Source of the DNA: an uncultured Clostridia bacterium
Lineage (GTDB): Bacteria > Bacillota > Clostridia > TANB77 > CAG-508
Assembly: GCA_934130935.1 (NCBI GenBank)
Contig: CAKOYQ010000001.1
Location: 168,003-232,002 of the forward strand
Length of the DNA: 64,000 nt
Direction of reading: 5' to 3'
The translations under genes and the position numbers were made by a program. Numbering within the stretch: position 1 is the stretch's first letter; each line of letters starts with the position of its first letter. This document shows, piece by piece, positions 45,806-57,136 of the stretch. Below the pieces are notes generated by a model that saw only the letters and a program-made list of their open reading frames with translations, searched no databases and was not told the origin of the DNA.

Positions 45806-46480
45806 TTATTCTACTTTTTGATACCCTCCATCTTTATATAAAAACTTATCTCCTTTTTTAGACATTTGATACAAATCTTTAGGAAACTCTATTTCTTCAA
45901 ATTCCTCAATTCCTCCACCCTCAATATTATTTAAGTCATATAACCATATCCTACCATTATCTTTTTCTTCAACTTCATACATATGTCCATCTATTCTTTT
46001 ATCTTTGAGAAATTGATTTTGTTTTTTTATCTGCTCTTCTATCATTTCATTTATTCTCTTTCCTACAATTCGTGTTGCATTTGCATCTAAAATAAATTTA
46101 TCTCCTTGTTTACGCAAAACGCTCCCTAATTGAGTTCCTTTTGGTAATTCATCTATTGACAATGTAAGTATTTTGTGGTTTTTATCTGTTTTACTAATAT
46201 TATAAGAATTTTTTTCATTTTCGCTCACATTATAAATATAATACATTTCTCCCGCTTCTTTTGTGTTTTCAGCATAATCTTGCAATATATTAGCTCTTTC
46301 TTTTAGCATATTATCTTTGTATTTTGAAATTATTTTAGTATCATTAATGGTTAAATCATCTGCCAATAAATTATTCCATCCATTATTTTCAAGATAATCA
46401 GATAATTCATTCATAAAATCTATTGCTAATTTGTTTTCTTTTAAATTATTAAATAAATTGTTAATAAAATCTAAGTTCAA
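45806..46480 (-). CDS. cytoplasmic protein of unknown function, candidate partner/inhibitor of the upstream nuclease
   Basis: 224 aa with no signal peptide. TTG start 9 nt after an AGGAGA SD and 21 nt after the nuclease stop. Confidence 0.45.
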   Translation of the reverse strand: MNLDFINNLFNNLKENKLAIDFMNELSDYLENNGWNNLLADDLTINDTKIISKYKDNMLKERANILQDYAENTKEAGEMYYIYNVSENEKNSYNISKTDKNHKILTLSIDELPKGTQLGSVLRKQGDKFILDANATRIVGKRINEMIEEQIKKQNQFLKDKRIDGHMYEVEEKDNGRIWLYDLNNIEGGGIEEFEEIEFPKDLYQMSKKGDKFLYKDGGYQKVE

Positions 46481-46501
46481 TAAGCTTTCTCTCCTTTACC
46501 T

Positions 46502-47263
46502 TTATTTTTGTGCATGGCTTTCTCCTGTTAAGTAATCAATTACTATCCCTGGTTGTACATTATAACAATACACATTAAAACAAACTCCTTTTCCATTATC
46601 TTCTACTGACCACGCTTCCATCTCTACTCCACTTGCAAGAAGGTTTTCACCTTCATAAATAGGTGTCACTCTATATAAAACATGATTTTTTCCATGATTA
46701 TCAATATATTCAGCCACTTTATTTTCAAATGGTAACATTCCTTCTGTATTTAAATATCGTGTTCCTGTAATTAAATTTTGTTTATTTGCATTTTCTGCCG
46801 AAAGTTGCCAACCTATTAAATGACAACGGTTATATAAATATTTGTCTTTAATTAAATTGTCATATCTTTTTTGTACCCATCCTGAAAGATTTTTTACACT
46901 ACCAATGTCACCACGTTCTTCTCCTTTTTTAGGCATTGTTTCTTTACATACATTTGCAAATGCTACACCACTCCTCCCTAAATCATCCCACTCACTGTAT
47001 CTTTCAAAACTATTAGTAGTATAATCTTTATCAGTAAAATATGGGATATTATTGTTTATTTCAATGTAAGGACTTGATGTATATTCTGGGATTTTTGATA
47101 AATCAAATGTTTCTGCTTGATTTATGTTCTCTGTGTTATTATTTTGATTTGTTGTTACTTCGTTTTGGCTCATATAGCCTGATATCATAATACATGTCAG
47201 TATTGCTATTGATGCAATTATTTGCCATATATTTTGTTTTTTATTATTTTTTCTTTTGCTCAT
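46502..47263 (-). CDS. membrane-anchored/exported DNA/RNA non-specific endonuclease (EndA/NucA-like)
   Basis: N-terminal anchor IWQIIASIAILTCIMISGY. Active-site region NRCHLIGWQLSAENANKQNLITGTRYLN. Confidence 0.75.
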   Translation of the reverse strand: MSKRKNNKKQNIWQIIASIAILTCIMISGYMSQNEVTTNQNNNTENINQAETFDLSKIPEYTSSPYIEINNNIPYFTDKDYTTNSFERYSEWDDLGRSGVAFANVCKETMPKKGEERGDIGSVKNLSGWVQKRYDNLIKDKYLYNRCHLIGWQLSAENANKQNLITGTRYLNTEGMLPFENKVAEYIDNHGKNHVLYRVTPIYEGENLLASGVEMEAWSVEDNGKGVCFNVYCYNVQPGIVIDYLTGESHAQK

Positions 47264-47280
47264 AATTCCTCCATTTTAGT

Positions 47281-47308
47281 GAGGAGGGGCCTATTTTAGC
47301 CCCTCCTC
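47281..47308. other. GC-rich 10-bp perfect stem-loop between the yjjX-like gene and the nuclease gene
   Basis: GAGGAGGGGC-N8-GCCCCTCCTC. The T-run is on the plus-strand side only, so the orientation does not fit a simple terminator for the minus-strand genes. Confidence 0.6.
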
Positions 47309-47316
47309 CTATTTTT

Positions 47317-47805
47317 TTACCAATTTCTTATTCCAGATAGTGCCATAATCGTGGCCTCCCTTACGTGATCTTCTCTAGTTTCTAATCCCCGTGTAAGTTG
47401 TCTCACTCCACCTTTTCCATTAAAGACTTCATCTAATACTGATGCTAATCCAATTTCTTTAATTCTGGGAATTAATGAATTCGGAATAGGATATGCTTGG
47501 CTTAGGCCAAATTCTTTCTTTCCATTCTTTGCTTTTATGCAAACTACCTGCACATTGAACCAATTTCCACACATGGAAATTAATCCTCCCTCACAGGCTA
47601 CTGCATAATCATAACTCACATTGCTTTTCTCAAGTTCTTCTACCCTGTTTGCAGCTCCCTGCATTACCTCTTCATTTAATGGTTGTTCTGGAACTTTTGA
47701 TGTCACTTTCATCACTTCAACATCAACTATCCCAAAATATTCTTCAAATACTTTGGTAATAGGCCTTACTTTTGCCCGGTTTTCACTGCCTATTAATACT
47801 TTCAT
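47317..47805 (-). CDS. YjjX-family (DUF84) inosine/xanthosine triphosphatase
   Basis: MKVLIGSENRAKV, SKVPEQP, GAANRV, ACEGG and LTRG...ALS align with the E. coli YjjX pattern. Confidence 0.75.
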   Translation of the reverse strand: MKVLIGSENRAKVRPITKVFEEYFGIVDVEVMKVTSKVPEQPLNEEVMQGAANRVEELEKSNVSYDYAVACEGGLISMCGNWFNVQVVCIKAKNGKKEFGLSQAYPIPNSLIPRIKEIGLASVLDEVFNGKGGVRQLTRGLETREDHVREATIMALSGIRNW

Positions 47806-47905
47806 TCTACTATCTCCTTTTAGGTTGATGCTTTTATTATAACATTTTTTTTGAAATTTGTATATATTTTTCCATAATTTTTTATTTTTGTCACTTTATG
47901 CTAAT

Positions 47906-49171
47906 TTATCTTTTAACTCCATTTTGAAAAGTATCTTGCCTACTAATTTTTTCCACATTTTCTATAACTGTTTTTATTATCATTTTTGATATTGGGTTAG
48001 TTATAGATTTCGGACTATCACTATATTTTTCTAGGATTGGCAAACTCTCTTCATTTCTTTTAGACGTCTCTGATTCACTTCCAGCTAAATTTAATCCTGC
48101 ATTATTAGCAGAAATTATCGCTCTTGAAACTGCTCCTTCTACATCACTTTTATCTTTTACCCTATAACTTTTTGATTGTAAATATTCTATGTATTCTGCC
48201 CCTGATGAATGTAATGTATCAATAGCATGTTTATATAATTTATGTCCAGCATAATTCAATGGAGTTAATATATCAAATTCTGTTACATTAAATCTTTCAA
48301 TATCTTTTTTTTCGCCAACAGACACTTTATAATAATTTCTCCAATTATATTGTACTGCTCCTGAAATAATATCTTTAATTCCTATTAATCCTAAATCATG
48401 TTTTAACTCTTGCATAGTAGAACCAGTTCCAATATTATCATCCAATAATAAAATTGTTTTACCTTTTTGTAATATTCTATCACTTGATATTAAATCAACT
48501 ATTGATGCAGACTTTATATTTGTGGTTTCTTCTATATATTTACTTTTTAAAGTATTAGTAAAATTATATCCATACATTGCTTTTAAGAATGGTCCTATAT
48601 AAATACTTCCATATCCTGGTGTTAACACTTCTATTTCTTCTGGTTCTTTTTTCATCTTTAGTGACTGAAAGAAAATATATAACATAGCTTTATTATCCAT
48701 TTCTATTGCTCTCTTGGCACAATTTTCTAAGCCTACAGGTAATATATTTCTATAATCTAAATTAATAACACCTTTATTTGATAATAATACTAATATGTTT
48801 CTTACATCTTCCATTAGGCAATCTTCTGCCTGTTTTAATTGCATTTCTACAGTTTTGTTTTTCTTTTTGCCTTGTATGTATTCTTCAAATTTTTTAAAAT
48901 ACACCTTTGCAGAGCAATTTAGCATATTTTCTAATATAACAAAATTTCTCTTTGTCAACTCTCTTGTTAATTTTAATTTTAATTCTTCTCTGTCCATTGC
49001 CAACTCTGTCATACTTTTAACATTATAATATTCTTTTGAACGTGATAGATATGTCTGAATTTCTCCATTTTCTCCAATAACTGGTGTTACATACTTTTCT
49101 ATTCCATTAACATCATCTAAATTTATTATTCCTAATATATCAAACTCTTTTAGTTCTAATTTCTCACTCAT
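47906..49171 (-). CDS. atypical 421-aa protein with a type I phosphoribosyltransferase (PRTase) core
   Basis: PRPP-binding loop KTILLLDDNIGTGSTM flanked by about 170 aa N-terminal and 130 aa C-terminal regions that I cannot assign. Confidence 0.6.
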   Translation of the reverse strand: MSEKLELKEFDILGIINLDDVNGIEKYVTPVIGENGEIQTYLSRSKEYYNVKSMTELAMDREELKLKLTRELTKRNFVILENMLNCSAKVYFKKFEEYIQGKKKNKTVEMQLKQAEDCLMEDVRNILVLLSNKGVINLDYRNILPVGLENCAKRAIEMDNKAMLYIFFQSLKMKKEPEEIEVLTPGYGSIYIGPFLKAMYGYNFTNTLKSKYIEETTNIKSASIVDLISSDRILQKGKTILLLDDNIGTGSTMQELKHDLGLIGIKDIISGAVQYNWRNYYKVSVGEKKDIERFNVTEFDILTPLNYAGHKLYKHAIDTLHSSGAEYIEYLQSKSYRVKDKSDVEGAVSRAIISANNAGLNLAGSESETSKRNEESLPILEKYSDSPKSITNPISKMIIKTVIENVEKISRQDTFQNGVKR

Positions 49172-49786
49172 TTAATTTTCCACCTTTAAAAAATCTTTTA
49201 AACAATTTAACTGCTTTTCAAACTCATATCTTGTAAAAACAGTATCACTTTTTTCTTTTCCACCCATTGTATGTATTATGTTTCTTTCACAATCCTTCAA
49301 TACATTTCTATATAGTGGATTTTGAATCGCTGAAATATACATCTCATCTACTAAGTCATCAAATTCTTCACTATATCTATTTATTTTTTCACCTTGCCAG
49401 TACACTATTCCAGTTTCTTTCCAATCATATCCACTACACACTTTTACATAGTTAGAATTTAAAGCTGTATATTCAAATACCATATTTTGCATTGTTATAT
49501 CTTTAAATTTTATTCCCTGAAAAAATGCCTCAATACATTTCAATTTTTTTCCTCTAAATTCGAATTCATATGGAAATAAGTTTGATAATACTTTTGCATA
49601 CGGACCTGAATGCTTATACCCTACATTTATCCATTTTTCACAATCACCAATTTCTTTCCCTTCTTCATCTATCAATGGTTCTCCATCATAATATTCTTTT
49701 CCATCTATTTCTTCTACGTTTTTCATTTCATATTTATATTTCTCCTTAAATTCTTTGAATTTTTTTAATTCATCTATTTTATCCAT
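49172..49786 (-). CDS. NADAR/YbiA-like (DUF1768-like) protein
   Basis: VLSNLFPYEFEFRGKKLKCIEAFFQGIKF resembles the NADAR SNF...F...G..y.s.Ehy.QA.KF signature. Its stop abuts the PRTase ATG. Confidence 0.4.
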   Translation of the reverse strand: MDKIDELKKFKEFKEKYKYEMKNVEEIDGKEYYDGEPLIDEEGKEIGDCEKWINVGYKHSGPYAKVLSNLFPYEFEFRGKKLKCIEAFFQGIKFKDITMQNMVFEYTALNSNYVKVCSGYDWKETGIVYWQGEKINRYSEEFDDLVDEMYISAIQNPLYRNVLKDCERNIIHTMGGKEKSDTVFTRYEFEKQLNCLKDFLKVEN

Positions 49787-49831
49787 ATATTTTGTTCCTT
49801 TCCTTTTATTTATTTTGTATATAATAATACC

Positions 49832-49860
49832 ATTTTAACAGATTATCGTTATATTTTCAA
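49832..49860 (-). promoter_or_regulatory. sigma-A promoter of the NADAR-PRTase operon
   Basis: On the minus strand, TTGAAA-17 nt-(TGT)TAAAAT, about 45 nt upstream of ATG 49786. Confidence 0.45.
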
Positions 49861-49875
49861 GGCCAATTCCACCTT

Positions 49876-49908
49876 AAAAGAGAGAGCCTATTTAGAGACC
49901 CCCTCTTT
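49876..49908 (-). terminator. rho-independent terminator of clpB
   Basis: On the minus strand, AGAGGGGGTC-N8-GGCTCTCTCT (with G:U pairs) followed by TTTT. Confidence 0.55.
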
Positions 49909-49922
49909 GTTCACATTTATCA

Positions 49923-52520
49923 TTAATCATTTTTTATATATAATTCATCATTATTACAGTCAATTACCACTTTGCTATTAGGCAAAATTTCTTGAGTTAA
50001 AATCTTTTTAGCAATTAAAGTTTCAAGTTTCTTCTGCACAAATCTTTTTAAAGGTCTTGCACCATAAACTTCATCATATCCATTATCAATTAAATAATCT
50101 TTAGCAGGTTGAGTTAATTCTAATTTGATATGTTTATCATCAAGCCTTTTTTCCAAGTCTTTAATAAGAAGTTCCAATATTTTTGAAATTTCATTTTTCA
50201 TAAGTGGTTTGTAAAATACTATTTCATCCAAACGATTTAAAAATTCAGGTCTAAAGCTTCTTTTTAATAATTCTGATACTTTTTGTTTTGCTTCTTCTGA
50301 AATTTCGCCATTTTCTTGAATTCCTTCTAATATATAATCAGAACCCAAATTTGAAGTTAATATTATTATAGTATTCTTAAAGTCAACTGTTCTTCCTTGT
50401 GAATCTGTTATACGTCCATCATCTAATACTTGTAATAAAATGTTAAATACATCTGGATGTGCTTTTTCAATTTCATCAAATAAAACTACTGAATATGGTT
50501 TTCTTCTTACTGCCTCTGTTAATTGTCCACCCTCTTCATATCCTACATATCCTGGAGGTGCACCAATCAATCTTGAAACAGAATATTTTTCCATATATTC
50601 AGACATATCAATTCTTACTATATTGTGTTCATCATCAAATAAACTTTCTGCAAGAGATTTTGCAAGTTCAGTCTTACCAACACCTGTTGGACCTAAGAAC
50701 ATAAATGAACCTATAGGTCTACGTGGATCTCCAATTCCTGCTCTTGAACGCATTATTGCTTGTGAAACTTTTTCAACTGCTTCATCTTGACCAATTACTC
50801 TTTTATGAAGTATTTTATCAAGATTTAAGATTTTCTCTCTTTCTCCTTCCATCAATTTTGTAACAGGTATCCCTGTCCATCTTGATATGATTTTTGCGAT
50901 TTCCTCTTCTGTTACTTTATTTCTTAATAGTCCATCTTCTTTGCTTTTTTCTGATATTTCCTCTTCATGTTGTAGCTCTTTTTGTAATTCTGGTAACTTT
51001 CCATATCTTAATTCTGCAACCTTATTCAAATCATAGTTTCTTTCTGCTTGTTCAATTTGTGCATTTGTTTGTTCAATCTCTTCACGTAATTTTTGAACTT
51101 TTCCTATTGCAGCTTTTTCATTTTCCCATTTTGCTTTCATTCCATCAAATTTAGTTTTTAGTTCTGATTTCTCTTTTTGAATATCAGCTAAACGTTGTTT
51201 AGAAATCTCATCTTTTTCTTTGCTTAATGCTGTTTCTTCTATTTCTAATTGCATTATTTTTCTTGAAACCTCGTCAAGTTCTGTTGGCATTGATTCCATT
51301 TCTGTTTTTATCATAGCACAAGCTTCATCAATTAAATCTATTGCTTTATCTGGTAAAAATCTATCTGATATATATCTATGTGATAATGTTGCAGCAGAAA
51401 TTAAGGCATTATCTGCAATCTTAACACCATGATATACTTCATATCTTTCTTTTAAGCCTCTTAAAATTGATATTGTATCTTCTACTGACGGTTCATCAAC
51501 CATTACAGGTTGAAAACGTCTCTCAAGAGCTTGGTCTTTCTCTATATATTGTCTATACTCATTTAAGGTTGTTGCACCTATACAATGTAATTCTCCTCTT
51601 GCCAACATTGGTTTTAATAAATTACCTGCATCCATTGCTCCATCTGTCTTTCCAGCACCTACTATTGTGTGAATTTCATCTATAAACAATATAATTCTGC
51701 CTTCACTTTTCTTTACTTCTTGCAAAACTGCTTTAAGTCTTTCTTCGAACTCTCCTCTATATTTTGCACCAGCTACAAGTAAGCCCATATCAAGTGAAAA
51801 TATTGTACATTCCTTTAGACCTTCTGGCACATCTCCCCTAACTATTCTTAATGCTAACCCTTCTGCTATAGCTGTTTTACCTACACCAGGTTCACCAATC
51901 AAACATGGATTATTTTTAGTCTTTCTTGACAATATACGAATAACATTTCTTATTTCTGTATCTCTCCCTATTACTGGATCTAATTTTTGTTCTCTAGCCA
52001 TTTGTGTTAAATCTTGCCCATATTTCTTTAAAACATCATAAGTATCTTCAGGATTATCAGATGTTACTCTTGTATTTCCTCTAACATCAAATAAAGCCTT
52101 TAAAAACTCATTTTTTGTAATACTATATCTTCTAAAAATTTCTTTTATATTACTATTTGCATTATTAAAAATTGCAAGCATTATATGTTCAACAGAAACA
52201 TATTCATCTTTCATTTTTTTCGCAATCGATTCTGAATCAGCCAAAACTTTGTCAACGTCTTGTGCAACATAAATTCCATCACTTGGTCTTGCACCTCCTG
52301 TCATTTTGGGCTTATTTTCTATCTTATTTCTAATTTCATTTTCAATGCTTTCTTCGTCCCCTATTTTTTTGATTAGTTCTTTTATTAAACTATTTTCTTG
52401 TTCTAATAATGCTAATAATAAATGTTCTTGCTCTACTTGTGCATTTTGGTTTTCCATTGCTAGTGTTTGTGCATTTTGTATTGCTTCTAATGATTTTTGA
52501 GTAAATTTTTGAATATTCAT
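49923..52520 (-). CDS. clpB: ATP-dependent chaperone ClpB
   Basis: Two AAA+ modules ([16 protein letters not shown]) and a long middle coiled coil. Start [10 protein letters not shown] at ATG 52520 behind AGGAGGAG. Confidence 0.95.
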
Positions 52521-52537
52521 AATCACTCCTCCTTTTT

Positions 52538-52603
52538 GGGACATATGGGGTCGGTTCCATTTTTGCCCTTAGGGCAATTTGGGGTCGGTTCCGTTTTTTC
52601 CCT
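52538..52603 (+). repeat. two tandem REP-like 33-nt units in the clpB leader
   Basis: GGGACATATGGGGTCGGTTCCATTTTTGCCCT followed by AGGGCAATTTGGGGTCGGTTCCGTTTTTTCCCT. Confidence 0.85.
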
Positions 52604-52665
52604 TTGTCCTAACTTAAAAGCACAATCTTTTAATATAGAATGTGCCTCTTTTTATTACATTTATT

Positions 52666-52694
52666 ATTATATCACTTCGTTTTAGCACTGTCAA
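52666..52694 (-). promoter_or_regulatory. consensus sigma-A promoter of clpB
   Basis: On the minus strand, TTGACA (52694-52689)-17 nt-TATAAT (52671-52666). Confidence 0.7.
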
Positions 52695-52708
52695 TAGTAG
52701 AGTGCTAA
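52682..52708. promoter_or_regulatory. CIRCE operator (HrcA binding site)
   Basis: TTAGCACTG-N9-GAGTGCTAA versus the consensus TTAGCACTC-N9-GAGTGCTAA (1 mismatch). It overlaps the -35 box. Confidence 0.75.
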
Positions 52709-52722
52709 AATGATAAAAATTT

Positions 52723-54868
52723 TTATATTAATCTTAAACTATTGATTACAACCGTAAAACTACTTAATGTCATAGCTAAACTTGCAAACATTGGATTAAT
52801 ACTTAGTTGAAATAATCCAGTAGCAAGTGGAATCATACAAACATTGTAAAATAAAGCCCAAAATAGATTCTCTTTAATAATCTTGATTGTTTTGTTTCCT
52901 ATATTAAATAACTCACATACAGTTTCCATGTTTTCATTTAATAATATAACATCTGATGCATCATTACTAATATCTGTTCCATTTTGTACACTTACTCCAA
53001 CTGTTGCAGCTTTAAGTGCTGGACTATCATTTATACCATCACCAACCATTAAGCAATTTTTATTTTGATTGAGTTCTTTTATCTTTTCTAATTTTTCTTG
53101 TGGTGAAACATTACTCACAACCTCAGTTATTTGAAGTTTATCTGCAATAATTCTTGCAGTTTCATTATTATCACCTGTAAGCATAACAACCTTTTTTCCT
53201 TTTTTATGAAGATTATTTATAACTTCTTTCATATTCGGCTTTATCTCATCAGCCAACCCAACTATAGATAAAACCTTACTATCAGTAAATAGGTACACTA
53301 TACTTTCGCCTTTTTTGCTATATTCCTCTTCTTCTTTTTGAAAAATATTCTCAATATTTTTACTTTTTAAAAATTTATTATTTCCTGCAAAATAGTTTTT
53401 ACCATTTATTTGTCCTTTTATTCCCATTCCAGCAATTTCTTCAAAATCATATACGTCATATGTCTGACTTGCATTTGCAACTATACTTTTCGCAATCGGA
53501 TGGTTTGACTTTGCCTCTAAACTTTGTAAAATTTTAAAATTTTCTTCATCTCCAACCATATCAACAACTTGCAATTTTCCAAGTGTTAATGTCCCTGTTT
53601 TATCAAACACTATTGTATCTATTTTACTTATTGCTTCTAAAATTTCACTCGATTTTACTAGAATACCTTTTTTACTACATCTTCCTATTGATACAACCAT
53701 TGCTAATGGTGTTGCTAATCCCAATGCACATGGACATGCAACTACAAGAACACTTACTAATGCTAATATTGCTGTTGTTATATTCTGTTTAATTATAAAA
53801 TTTAATGCAAAAGATAATATTGCAATTATAAATATCGCTGGAACAAAATAGCCACTTATTTTATCTGCAAGTCTTGCAATAGGAGCTTTTGTATTCGTTG
53901 CTTCAACTACCATTTGTACTATATTAGAAATGCTTGAATCTTTACCTATTTTTTCAGCTTCATATTCTATATATCCATTATAATTTATACTTCCAGCAAT
54001 AACTTTATCTCCCATTTTTTTACTTACTGGATTACTTTCACCAGTTATAAAAGATTCGTCTGTATGTGTATTCCCCTTTATGATTACTCCATCAACAGCT
54101 ATTTTTTCTCCAGGTTTACAGATAACAATGTCGCCTTTTTTTATTTCATTTATCGTTACTCTTTTTTCTTTTCCATCTTTTAATATAACTCCATTTTGTG
54201 GTGTAATTGTTACTAAATTCTTTATTGTATCAACAGCTTTTGCTTTGTTTTTTGTATCAATATATCTCCCTATTTTTACAAATAGAATTATCATTGCAGA
54301 TGCCTCAAAATATAAATTATGAATTGCATGTAAATTCCCTCTAAATACTAGAATACTGTTATACAAACTATATCCATAATTTACAATCACTCCAATTCCT
54401 ACAAGTGAATCCATATTAGGCATTTTATGCCATATGTTTTTTATCCCATTTTGAATAATATCTCTTCCAAATATAAGAAATAATGTTGTTAAACCTAGAA
54501 GAACTATTGTATATGATTTAGGTGCTATGTCTATGTTCAAGCCTTCTGGAACAGGTATATTCAACATATGTCCCATTGAAATATACATTAATATAATTCC
54601 TAGTACTGTAAATATCATTATTAATTTAAAATCTTTTTTGCTTTCTTTTTCATTTCCTTTTTCGCCTAAACTTTTAAAACCTGCATCTTCCACAAATTTT
54701 TCTAAGTCTTTTACACTTAAATTGTCTTGATATTCTATAGATGCGGTTGCCATAACTAGATTTACAGATGCGTTTTCTATTCCGTTCTTGTTTGTTTAAA
54801 TATTTTTCTAATCCATTTGAGCAAGCACTACATGTCATCCCCTCAATATTTAAAATAATCTTATTCAT
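52723..54868 (-). pseudogene. copA: copper-translocating P1B-type ATPase CopA, frameshifted inside the N-terminal HMA domain
   Basis: MNKIILNIEGMTCSACSNGLEKYLNKQ (frame A) continues as NGIENASVNLVMATASIEY (frame B). Downstream motifs CPCALGLATP, DKTGTLT and GDGINDSPAL are present. Confidence 0.8.
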
Positions 54869-54880
54869 TTTTTGCCTCTC

Positions 54881-55087
54881 TTATTGTATTACTTCAAAAC
54901 CTAGGTTGCTTATTTTGTCTTTTATTTTGTCTACATCAGTACTATCTGTGGCAATTACTTTAACTGTTCCATTTTCGTGATTTGCCTTAACTTCTTCAAC
55001 TCCAGATATACTACTTACCGCATTTTGAATCCTTCTTTCACATCCTGTACATTCCATTCCCTCTATTTTAAAATTAATTTCTTTCAT
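54881..55087 (-). CDS. copZ: copper chaperone CopZ (HMA domain)
   Basis: 68 aa with the GMECTGCERR metal-binding motif. Confidence 0.85.
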   Translation of the reverse strand: MKEINFKIEGMECTGCERRIQNAVSSISGVEEVKANHENGTVKVIATDSTDVDKIKDKISNLGFEVIQ

Positions 55088-55114
55088 TTTAAACTATTAC
55101 CTCCTATTTTAATT

Positions 55115-55147
55115 AGGGCAATTTGGGGTCGGTTCCATTTTTGCCCT
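55115..55147 (+). repeat. REP-like 33-nt unit
   Basis: AGGGCAATTTGGGGTCGGTTCCATTTTTGCCCT, 28 nt upstream of the copZ start. Confidence 0.85.
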
Positions 55148-55172
55148 TTTTCTCTTAAATATGATAATTATT

Positions 55173-55348
55173 AATATTAAATATAAACTTTAAATGAAAT
55201 GACGAATATGATTGGAGAAACTTTAGAAATTCTACGAAATTTTATGGAAAGAGTTCACGAGAGTGGAAGGGTGCCATAAAATAAGTTAGAATTTCTTAAG
55301 TTTCGTAATGAATCGAGAGAATGTAATGCAAAGTTTATATTTAATATT
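55173..55348 (-). mobile_element. MITE-like long-hairpin element, copy 2 (inverted relative to copy 1)
   Basis: Perfect 19-bp TIRs AATATTAAATATAAACTTT / AAAGTTTATATTTAATATT. The central 58 nt are identical to copy 1. Confidence 0.75.
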
Positions 55349-55370
55349 AATAAATTAGCTATGTTATAAA

Positions 55371-55403
55371 AGGGCAAAAATGGAACCGACCCCAAATTGC
55401 CCT
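55371..55403 (-). repeat. REP-like 33-nt unit, inverted
   Basis: AGGGCAAAAATGGAACCGACCCCAAATTGCCCT, the exact reverse complement of 55115-55147. Confidence 0.85.
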
Positions 55404-55417
55404 CAAATGTTCCTTTT

Positions 55418-57136
55418 CTAGCCTAATATTTTTTTAATTTCTTCTTGTCTTTTAACCTTTTTTGTTGTAGTTTTTATAAGTTCTTCATCTGTCAAAATCA
55501 TATTTTTTATATATTTATAAGGTGGAAAAGTCTTATTAATCTCTTTTATCTTTTCCCAAATAACTTTTCTCAATTCATCCTCTGTAGCATTTGGGTACTT
55601 TTCTTTAGCAACATCTTTATTATAAACCACTTTAACAGACAATTTCAAATCATTTTTATCTTTTTCATCAGGCATTCCATAAACAATACATTCTTCTACT
55701 AAATCCAATCTATTTATTAATACTTCTAATTCCTCTGGAAAAACTTTTTTACCATTTTTCAAAACAATCATATCTTTTTGTCTTCCTGTTAAAAAGATAA
55801 AACCATCCTTATCAATATAGCCTAAATCTCCTGTATAAAACCAACCATCTCTTATTACTTTTCTTGTTTCTTCCTCATTATCATAATATCCAAGCATTAC
55901 ATTAGGTCCTTTTACACGAAGCTCGCCTATACCATTTTCATCCTTATCAACTATTTCTAATTCTATATTGTCCATAGGAAATCCGATTGAACCACTTCTC
56001 TTTTTATATGCATTTTCCGCTGCAATTACTGGTGATGTTTCTGTTAATCCATATCCTTGAGCTAATTCTATACCTAATTCATTAAAACCTTGAGCGACTC
56101 TTTTATCTAATGGTGCTCCTCCTGATATAATAAATCTCATGTGGCCACCAAGTGCATCTAACACTGGTTTAAATAATTTTTTTCTTATATCTATATGGAA
56201 TTTTAATAATATATTACTAATCTTTTTTGCCATATTGATTAATTTCGTTTTTCCTTGTTTTTCAATCTCTTTTTCTATATTTCTATAAATCGCCTCAACT
56301 AAAAGAGGAACTCCAACAAATAATGAAACTTTATATTCTTTCAAGTTCTGAGCTACATATCTTAGTCCATCTGGAAACGCTGTTGCTAATCCTGATGCAA
56401 GCATAACTATCATTTCTGTTGAACCAAATATATGATGAAATGGTAAAAATGCTAAATTTACATCTGTTGGTAAAAATCTTTCTACCAATAGCATTGCATA
56501 TACATTTGAAGCAATATTATGTTGTGACAACATAACAGCTTTTGACTTTGACGTTGTTCCTGATGTAAATAACAATATTGCCATTTTATCTTCATCAATT
56601 TTAACTTTAGTATATTCTTTTTCTCCTTGTTTTAATAGTTTCTTTCCTTTTTCTTTCAAATCCCAAAAATTAGAATATCCATCTTTTTCTGTCATACATA
56701 TATATTCTTGTAAATTTGTGTTTCCTCTTCTTTTTATTTCTTCTATATTTTCTATATACTTTTCATCAAAAATTACAACATCTGCTTTACTTCTTTCTAA
56801 ACAGCTCTCTAACTCATCAACTTGTAGTTCTTTATCTAATGGAACTGAAACTATACCACCTAATAAGTTTGCCAAATGTGCAACTCCCCATTCATATCTG
56901 TTTCTTCCTACTATTGCTATTCTTTTGTTCTTAAATCCCATTTCATATAGCTTTGTTCCAAATGCATTAATATCCTCTAATAATTTTTTATATGTTATGT
57001 TTTCATATGTTATCTCTTTGTCTTTTTTATGTTTTAATATAAATGCTATATTACTTGCATATTGTTTTGCTGAATTATAAATTATCCCTTTGATATCTTT
57101 AAATTCTATTGCTTTAAAATATCTTTCTCTTTCCAT
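55418..57136 (-). CDS. AMP-forming long-chain acyl-CoA ligase (FadD-like)
   Basis: AMP-binding motif LLFTSGTTSKSKAV, YGLTET, and GDLGYIDKDGFIFLTGRQKD. The start is probably MERERYF (ATG 57136). Confidence 0.8.
   Translation of the reverse strand: MERERYFKAIEFKDIKGIIYNSAKQYASNIAFILKHKKDKEITYENITYKKLLEDINAFGTKLYEMGFKNKRIAIVGRNRYEWGVAHLANLLGGIVSVPLDKELQVDELESCLERSKADVVIFDEKYIENIEEIKRRGNTNLQEYICMTEKDGYSNFWDLKEKGKKLLKQGEKEYTKVKIDEDKMAILLFTSGTTSKSKAVMLSQHNIASNVYAMLLVERFLPTDVNLAFLPFHHIFGSTEMIVMLASGLATAFPDGLRYVAQNLKEYKVSLFVGVPLLVEAIYRNIEKEIEKQGKTKLINMAKKISNILLKFHIDIRKKLFKPVLDALGGHMRFIISGGAPLDKRVAQGFNELGIELAQGYGLTETSPVIAAENAYKKRSGSIGFPMDNIELEIVDKDENGIGELRVKGPNVMLGYYDNEEETRKVIRDGWFYTGDLGYIDKDGFIFLTGRQKDMIVLKNGKKVFPEELEVLINRLDLVEECIVYGMPDEKDKNDLKLSVKVVYNKDVAKEKYPNATEDELRKVIWEKIKEINKTFPPYKYIKNMILTDEELIKTTTKKVKRQEEIKKILG

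Follow-up and report, generated by a model that had tools for sequence, protein, structure and literature searches.

A NADAR, phosphoribosyltransferase and NTPase cassette in a small gut Clostridia genome: a candidate write-and-erase module based on PRPP chemistry

Why should a gene for a putative ribosyl-bond hydrolase end exactly where a gene for a phosphoribosyltransferase (PRTase) begins, with the gene for a nucleoside triphosphatase (NTPase) close behind? The question is raised by a 64,000-nucleotide stretch of DNA, hereafter the window, from an uncultured gut Clostridia bacterium with a small genome (GenBank assembly GCA_934130935.1, contig CAKOYQ010000001.1, positions 168,003 to 232,002). 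It contains a 2,649-bp segment (~2.65 kb; window positions 47281-49929, no strand assigned to the whole) that is present here and absent from the closest sister species. This cassette carries three genes, all on the minus strand and together filling positions 47317-49786: a NADAR-family gene, a gene for an atypical type I PRTase of 421 aa that we call PRT421, and a gene for an NTPase of the DUF84/YjjX family. A first-pass annotation, made from the DNA letters, had seen in them a writer/eraser or toxin/antidote arrangement acting on a base or nucleotide. Our own answer, held with slightly less than even confidence, is a toxin-antidote-like and possibly defensive unit in which a writer (toxin) dependent on phosphoribosyl pyrophosphate (PRPP) is joined by a NADAR eraser and an NTPase that cleans up.

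The NADAR gene (49172-49786, minus strand) encodes 204 residues and matched the Pfam family PF08010 (Phage_30_3) with an E-value of 4.8e-25 and 88.4 bits, the gathering score being 36; NCBIfam and PADLOC gave no match. Using an AlphaFold (AF2) model of the protein with a predicted local distance difference test score (pLDDT) of 86.5, we found that the top two Foldseek matches in the PDB were E. coli YbiA (2b3w, probability 1.0) and the NADAR of Geobacter (G. lovleyi; 8bat). In BFVD, the best matches were phage gp30.3-like models with a template modeling (TM) score of 0.79-0.85 and a root-mean-square deviation of 2.2-2.6 Å, followed by many proteins named NADAR, so the fold proposed for this open reading frame (ORF) in the first pass was borne out. 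Gene 30.3 of phage T4 has been renamed adfN; it encodes a DNA ADP-ribosylglycohydrolase with the NADAR fold, which removes the guanine adducts made by DarT1 (10.1101/2024.07.11.602962; PMC11125620). Residues E36 and K43 of AdfN are essential (10.1101/2024.07.11.602962), and a histidine in the last strand sets the phage NADARs apart (PMC11125620). In an alignment to T4-type gp30.3, E86 and K93 of the window protein align with AdfN E36 and K43, and H172 aligns with the last-strand histidine of the phage type; all three residues are invariant among the 31 homologues aligned. The likeness to AdfN thus comprises the PF08010 domain, a Glu/Lys pair spaced seven residues apart, the last-strand histidine, and 29-33% identity over 135-150 residues. 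Phage relatives were found in 1,450 phage genomes, aligning to residues ~50-200 and with 23-33% identity among the matches listed. Whereas AdfN works alone, as a counter-defence enzyme of phage whose substrate is DarT1-modified DNA, the window protein is bacterial, has a PRTase as its neighbor, and begins with ~50 aa that form an extension missing from T4-like gp30.3. Sequence and model together place the 204-aa ORF among the NADARs of the gp30.3/AdfN phage subtype, with its catalytic residues intact, and it is predicted to act as an N-glycohydrolase.

The NADAR gene closes with a TAA stop codon at 49174-49172 and the ATG of PRT421 (47906-49171, minus strand) follows at 49171 with zero gap, exactly as the first-pass annotation had it, the Shine-Dalgarno sequence of PRT421 (AAGGTGGA) lying inside the 3' end of the NADAR gene. 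The PRTase core of PRT421 spans residues ~165-290 and is set between a conserved N-terminal region (1-160) and a conserved C-terminal region (290-421). Its PRPP loop, ILLLDDNIGTGST at residues 240-252, is canonical for type I, and residues D244, D245, N246, G248, T249, G250, and T252 are invariant in 42 sequences. The same 42 sequences share many invariant motifs in the N- and C-terminal regions, for instance, RSKEYYNVK, NFVILENMLNCS, IEMDNKA, PGYGSxYIGP, GAVQYNWRNYY, and NYAGHKLY. The match to Pfam PF00156 is marginal (27.8 bits versus a cut-off of 26.3, residues 167-274). In the AF2 model (pLDDT 87.8), the N-terminal region is mainly helical, and Foldseek aligned the protein with probability 1.0 to APRT, HPRT, and OPRT cores over 120-150 residues only; a PRT421 profile searched against PDB sequences gave E-values of at least 0.019, on the PRPP loop only. 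Judged from sequence and model, PRT421 has the type I PRTase fold, with the PRPP loop and a Rossmann-like core present. As had been noticed at first sight, the regions on either side of the loop defied assignment: we found no match of the N- and C-terminal flanks to known families in Pfam, by Foldseek, or in the PDB profile search.

Orthology of PRT421 to a salvage or biosynthetic PRTase (APRT, HPRT, XPRT, OPRT, UPRT, PurF, or Prs), which would have undone the first-pass reading, was rejected, as the best NCBIfam equivalog scored 19.7 bits versus 184, and the PRT421 family profile matched 130 clusters out of 1.84 billion representatives. We also rejected a phage origin of the PRTase, since a search of 50,697 phage genomes gave zero matches and only one IMG/VR contig carries it. 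On that contig (L050; IMGVR_UViG_3300029720_000467, 1-7848) the NADAR-PRTase pair lies at the contig end; its direct neighbors are a CI-like S24/HTH repressor and a large serine recombinase, and the pair may be part of the host flank or cargo at a prophage end.

The third gene (47317-47805, minus strand) lies 100 nt downstream of the PRT421 gene and encodes a divergent NTPase of 162 aa. Its assignment to the YjjX family stands, with a match to PF01931 (NTPase_I-T) at an E-value of 6.9e-35 and 120.7 bits against a cut-off of 25, and its scores fall under all NCBIfam equivalog cut-offs (82.7 versus 117.1 for TIGR00258 and 69.9 versus 175 for another). It is the sole DUF84 copy of the window genome. 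Several genomes that bear the module have a second DUF84 gene elsewhere. These second copies group in a clade of their own (support 99/100), and the window NTPase is placed outside it, being closest (up to 48%) to module-adjacent copies. The tree therefore indicates that the protein is a module-specific paralogue rather than a housekeeping copy. Given its place in a module-linked paralogue group, a specificity for inosine or xanthosine triphosphate (ITP/XTP) is uncertain.

Do these three genes belong together? In the loci of other genomes NADAR adjoins the PRTase in 21 out of 21 cases and in both gene orders, one NADAR copy being truncated by a contig end. NADAR is directly upstream of the PRTase in 16 of these loci, from GTDB species that are all small-genome uncultured gut Clostridia, and 11 of the 16 also carry the NTPase, placed upstream of NADAR to give the order NTPase-NADAR-PRT, whereas the window has its NTPase downstream. 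The reverse order, PRT-NADAR, was found in four distant relatives, three of them in the window's own genus, with PRTases that are 33-42% identical and gene ends that overlap or nearly abut. When the ORFs of the 21 loci were clustered, the PRTase was recovered in 21, NADAR in 20 (plus the one cut by the contig end), the NTPase in 11, and a PHP phosphoesterase in 6; any other family was present in three loci or fewer. Pairwise identities of PRTase and NADAR are correlated with r = 0.92 over 136 pairs, the correlations with the NTPase are 0.72-0.84, and NADAR, with a mean identity of 73%, is better conserved than the other two cassette proteins. NADAR, PRTase, and NTPase form a real unit with a linkage far above chance, and the 33-79% spread of identities speaks against their co-occurrence being an artefact of repeated sampling from a single clonal lineage. 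The co-conservation that the first-pass annotation had made its reading depend on is thus complete for the NADAR-PRTase pair and partial for the NTPase, present in only 11 of the 21 loci.

Two further features of these loci were observed. In loci L002, L003, L004, L010, L014, and L026 (also L017-L019), a gene for a PHP-family phosphoesterase is found no more than a few kb from the module, in varying orientation; its best NCBIfam matches, each scoring below the respective cut-off, are RNase RNM, 3',5'-nucleoside bisphosphate phosphatase, and phosphoribosyl cyclic phosphodiesterase. The divergent PRTases from the window's genus (L024, L025, and L027) have N-terminal extensions, giving total lengths of 451-854 aa, which matched nothing in Pfam, NCBIfam, PADLOC, or the PDB; in these loci NADAR is followed by a conserved 159-162-aa ORF where the DUF84 gene would be.

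Comparison with the closest sister species, G020, by blastn and tblastn revealed the cassette to be accessory. Window positions 45807-47280 and 49930-52537 are collinear with G020, with flanks of 86-93% nucleotide identity (93% for clpB itself and 98% amino acid identity for ClpB), and the 2,649 bp between clpB and a nuclease gene are missing there, the same EndA-like nuclease gene following ~41 bp after clpB. Other members of the genus that bear the nuclease gene have no cassette at this gene either, so a gain in the lineage of the window genome appears to be the simpler history. Neither direct nor inverted repeats, as insertion scars, flank the cassette. Of 61 close relatives, 5 have the PRTase, and a class-wide sample of 399 genomes yielded it in one, the window genome; all carriers of the module have small genomes of 1.1-1.9 Mb.

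The pair also appears to decay from one side. In two loci (L013 and L015) the PRTase is frameshifted and NADAR is intact, and three genomes hold orphan NADAR pseudogenes or a remnant with no trace of a PRTase within 5 kb. These are gp30.3-type NADARs with five in-frame stops in G007 (L044, G007:C24 ~5.5-6.2 kb) and one in-frame stop in G048 (L043, G048:C7 ~59.1-59.7 kb), and a NADAR remnant beside copA in G051 (L045, G051:C1 ~46.3-46.5 kb). Among the loci examined for decay we found zero cases of an intact PRTase without NADAR. Loss of the PRTase before loss of NADAR fits a PRTase that is harmful without NADAR and a NADAR that has no other job, and such asymmetric decay is the pattern expected of a toxin/antidote-type pair.

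What might PRT421 write? Several distant relatives of the PRTase end in a fused (beta-alpha)8 barrel of the HisA-like type (PF00977; top NCBIfam match TIGR00007, HisA), and some of these add an N-terminal APH/RIO/MTR-kinase-like domain; in unfused relatives, separate overlapping genes encode the kinase, HisA-like barrel, and HAD phosphatase. HisA, like TrpF, carries out the Amadori rearrangement of an N-(5-phosphoribosyl)amine. The HisA-like fusions therefore suggest that the PRTase family attaches phosphoribose to an amino nitrogen and that its product is an N-(5-phosphoribosyl)amine. NADAR/YbiA enzymes cut N-(5-phosphoribosyl)amino pyrimidines, which are riboflavin intermediates, and N2-ADP-ribosyl-guanine (PMC9503650, PMC11125620). 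We propose that one branch of the family hands its product to an isomerase and that the window branch pairs its product with a hydrolase. The writer/eraser logic of the first-pass annotation is a reasonable one and is reinforced by these fusions; the toxicity, substrate, and defence that it implied are conjectural, and a metabolic reading has to be weighed beside it.

A sister branch of the family (P0272, P0270, and P0305; loci L037-L042, L053, and L054) is found in an uncharacterised operon or fusion of an APH/MTR-kinase-like kinase, PRTase, HisA-like isomerase, and HAD phosphatase that looks like a phosphoribosylamine pathway. Its hosts are represented by archaeal contigs, with exosome, proteasome, and ribosomal-protein genes in the flanks, and by small-genome bacterial contigs, and no NADAR was found within the 6-8 kb flanks examined.

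Taken as a write-and-erase module based on PRPP chemistry, the cassette would be self-contained and horizontally acquired. PRT421 would bind PRPP via its intact type I loop, hold an acceptor with its family-specific N- and C-terminal parts, and move 5-phosphoribose to an amino nitrogen of that acceptor, the likeliest being a purine nucleotide or a guanine or adenine in nucleic acid. The resulting N-(5-phosphoribosyl)amine would be harmful or regulatory, and the coupled NADAR would serve as the antidote by hydrolysing that ribosyl-N bond. The DUF84 NTPase may provide a second clean-up layer by stripping the triphosphate form of the aberrant purine nucleotide.

The first-pass annotation knew of no described system with this architecture, and on this point it has been overtaken: a NADAR and PRTase pair, DS-32, is a validated anti-phage system (PMC13092281) and PRTase toxins of the ShosT type are known (PMC11961720). 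DS-32, a DefensePredictor system of E. coli, consists of the PRTase DS-32A (WP_000097610.1) and the NADAR DS-32B (WP_032260665.1) and was shown by experiment to be anti-phage; its authors read it as toxin-antitoxin (TA) partner swapping relative to DarTG, leaving the mechanism unexplained (PMC13092281, 10.1101/2025.01.08.631726). Like the cassette pair, it is a two-gene unit of a PRTase fold and a NADAR with overlapping or abutting genes. However, DS-32A, with 343 aa, is of the retron-type-III-like kind and its PRPP loop (VYIDDVSFSGEK) is degenerate, whereas the loop of PRT421 is canonical and its N- and C-terminal regions are unrelated to those of DS-32A, and DS-32B is described as structurally DarG-like and annotated as PF08719 (NADAR), whereas the window NADAR is of the gp30.3/His type. 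The gene order in the window is reversed relative to DS-32, which also has no NTPase partner. Single DS-32 sequences, taken from Table S8 (supplement file 7) of that paper, were compared with our family profiles using hhalign, and the resulting probabilities of 0.1% and 0.2% led us to reject orthology, a very remote homology of the PRT cores still being possible. With DS-32 and the cassette unrelated in sequence, the NADAR-PRTase pairing would have arisen at least two times. YbiB of E. coli has the TrpD (type III) fold, not the type I fold, and is a DNA-binding protein of a LexA-regulated operon; homology to PRT421 is not to be expected. This PRTase-related protein of the TrpD2 family shares its operon with the NADAR YbiA (PMC11125620), and the ybiA-ybiB neighborhood may be a third NADAR-PRTase pairing.

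Other systems offer partial likenesses. In DarT1-NADAR and YarT-YbiA, NADAR sits beside a transferase whose ribosyl-N adduct it removes and so acts as an enzymatic antidote, and the NADARs characterised with a linked enzyme partner are all antitoxins so far (PMC11125620). The DarT1/YarT writer is an NAD+-dependent ADP-ribosyltransferase (ART), whereas the candidate writer of the cassette is a PRPP-type type I PRTase; membership in DarTG1/DarT-NADAR was rejected, as no ART domain was found in the cassette or its immediate neighbors. ShosT, the toxin of ShosTA, is a PRPP-binding PRTase that perturbs purine metabolism and requires this binding for toxicity (PMC11961720, PMC12961424). It resembles PRT421 as a PRTase-domain protein of ~420 aa, its acceptor being unknown, but begins with a Rossmann domain of the pyrophosphatase-like type and has an antitoxin that is DprA-like, whereas the N-terminal region of PRT421 is mainly helical. 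We rejected ShosTA membership given this helical region, the lack of a PADLOC match to ShosT or ShosA, and the lack of a DprA-like gene in the cassette; ShosT was also missing from the matches listed in the profile search against PDB sequences and from the 50 Foldseek matches of PRT421 listed. Retron type III-A effectors are PRTase-like and used in defence (PMC12746101), and this assignment too was rejected, as we found no reverse transcriptase ORF, no Rfam non-coding RNA match in 45.5-53 kb, and a PADLOC E-value of only ~1e-3. By analogy with DS-32, DarT1-NADAR, and YarT-YbiA, the cassette most likely behaves as a TA-like, possibly anti-phage, system.

Several points weigh against a TA-like or defensive role. 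The flanks of the module in other genomes are mostly housekeeping genes (NrdD, thymidylate-kinase-like, DXS, and aldolase) rather than defence islands, and the sister PRTase subfamily sits in biosynthetic-looking kinase-PRT-HisA-HAD operons. No sequence similarity to DS-32A or DS-32B was detected, and the PADLOC PRTase_III-A model matched PRT421 weakly (E ~1e-3) and over residues 196-257, the region of the PRPP loop. A mean identity of 73% makes NADAR well conserved for a conflict gene, and the frameshifts and in-frame stops on which the decay pattern is built come from metagenome-assembled genomes, where they may be assembly errors. Toxicity, rescue, and phage defence are, moreover, attributed to the PRT421 family by analogy and ahead of experiment.

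The alternative that survives best is a small-molecule nucleotide or cofactor pathway, which we regard as a serious though somewhat unlikely explanation. PRT421 would then make an N-phosphoribosyl intermediate of a metabolite or signalling nucleotide, NADAR would be an overflow or damage-control hydrolase like YbiA in riboflavin synthesis, the DUF84 protein would trim triphosphates in a HisE-like manner, and the cassette would be a niche-specific metabolic add-on of genome-reduced gut bacteria. The HisG-HisE-HisA steps provide a parallel for such a pathway. The fusions and operons of the PRTase with a HisA-like isomerase, an APH/MTR-kinase-like kinase, and a HAD phosphatase would be well explained in this way, as would the archaeal and housekeeping contexts, the restriction to small genomes of 1.1-1.9 Mb, the PHP nucleotide phosphoesterase neighbor in 6 of 21 loci, and the high sequence conservation. 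However, an operon that both writes a bond and hydrolyses it would run a futile cycle unless one of the activities is merely protective, and neither the extreme rarity and precise indel relative to the sister species nor the asymmetric decay is readily accommodated. A search of 45.5-53 kb against Rfam gave zero matches to a riboswitch or leader RNA from which a ligand could be read off, and the lack of an upstream riboswitch or known RNA regulator in Rfam counts against a metabolic pathway, as does a NADAR of the phage AdfN subtype, which acts on DNA adducts (PMC11125620).

Another possibility is centered on NADAR, with the host keeping an AdfN-like enzyme to reverse DNA ADP-ribosylation by an unlinked or incoming ADP-ribosyltransferase and the PRTase and NTPase merely regenerating or sanitising the nucleotide pool, for instance by re-using the released ribose phosphate or base. 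Such an enzyme could explain why NADAR has kept its AdfN-type catalytic residues, shows the highest conservation among the three proteins, and outlives the PRTase in L013 and L015, and why an ADP_ribosyl_GH gene lies 3 kb off in one related locus. We nevertheless consider it very unlikely: the orphan NADARs turn into pseudogenes after loss of the PRTase, suggesting that NADAR depends on the PRTase and not on an external transferase, the cassette has no ART domain, and the translational coupling and co-divergence (r = 0.92) point to a dedicated pair. In the related locus (L017, 14492-15856), the gene in question encodes ADP_ribosyl_GH and DUF6508 and lies ~3 kb downstream of the module, and sibling loci have a RelB/YafQ pair at this position, so the downstream flank is variable. 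That three unrelated housekeeping genes travel together without a shared function is scarcely credible, for although every gene comes with a plausible ribosome-binding site and a separate promoter may serve the NTPase, which is missing from 10 of 21 loci, the adjacency holds in 21 of 21 loci, in two orders and down to protein identities of 33%, the three genes make up a single indel, and the NTPase is a module-specific paralogue.

Besides its three genes, the cassette contains a promoter-like site and a terminal GC hairpin. The first-pass annotation had proposed promoters for both the NADAR-PRT421 pair and the NTPase, and both sequences are present: TTGAAA-17-TAAAAT with a TG (extended -10; 10 of 12 matches) upstream of the NADAR gene at 49832-49860 on the minus strand, within cassette-specific DNA, and TATACA-17-TATAAT with a TGn at 47836-47864 on the minus strand, in the 100-nt gap between PRT421 and the NTPase gene. 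In this AT-rich DNA, however, such sites are not above chance (18 found versus 17.2 expected in shuffled sequence), and it is their position that makes both plausible. No terminator-like site was seen between PRT421 and the NTPase gene. At the downstream edge of the cassette, a perfect 10-bp GC-rich hairpin (47281-47308, no strand assigned) starts at the first cassette-specific base and occurs only once in the window; its T-tract is on the non-coding strand only, leaving the coding (minus) strand without a U-tract.

Outside the cassette, AbiE, MazG, and methyltransferase genes lie 2-5 kb away as part of a distinct serine-recombinase element; this element interrupts an M14 peptidase gene that is continuous in G020. 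A defence-island context was therefore rejected, the flanks elsewhere being mostly housekeeping. Window positions 45806-47263 hold the EndA-like nuclease gene, present in 30 of 41 genomes of the genus, and a downstream acidic ORF, present in 4 of 4 relatives examined; both are genus core and lie outside the cassette. On the other side of clpB, a copZ/copA segment (window 52600-55400) is also missing from the sister species in a comparison with its locus L046, and in G020 a gene matching the window ORF at 55418-55975 lies directly before clpB. Since the cassette and the copZ/copA segment are both missing from G020, both sides of clpB appear to be insertion hot spots in the window genome.

A second, sequence-unrelated assembly of NADAR with a PRTase would mark the pairing as functional logic and no accident. 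The canonical PRPP site, the dedicated NTPase, and the HisA-fused relatives give rise to the testable hypothesis that PRPP is used to write an N-phosphoribosylamine adduct, which NADAR then erases. A bolder and rather improbable version is that PRT421 founds a family of PRPP-dependent phosphoribosyl writers that modify an exocyclic purine amine, either of a free nucleoside triphosphate or of guanine in DNA or RNA, with NADAR as the eraser and the NTPase as backing. If true, this would be a counterpart by phosphoribosylation of DarT-type ADP-ribosylation and would also explain DS-32 defence and the recurrent, independently assembled NADAR-PRTase pairings. Should the adduct hypothesis hold, it would reveal a new nucleotide or nucleic-acid modification in bacterial conflict and give the T4 gp30.3/AdfN family a role beyond counter-defence. 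If the metabolic reading is true instead, the cassette would point to a new nucleotide pathway in gut Clostridia that are abundant and uncultured and have reduced genomes.

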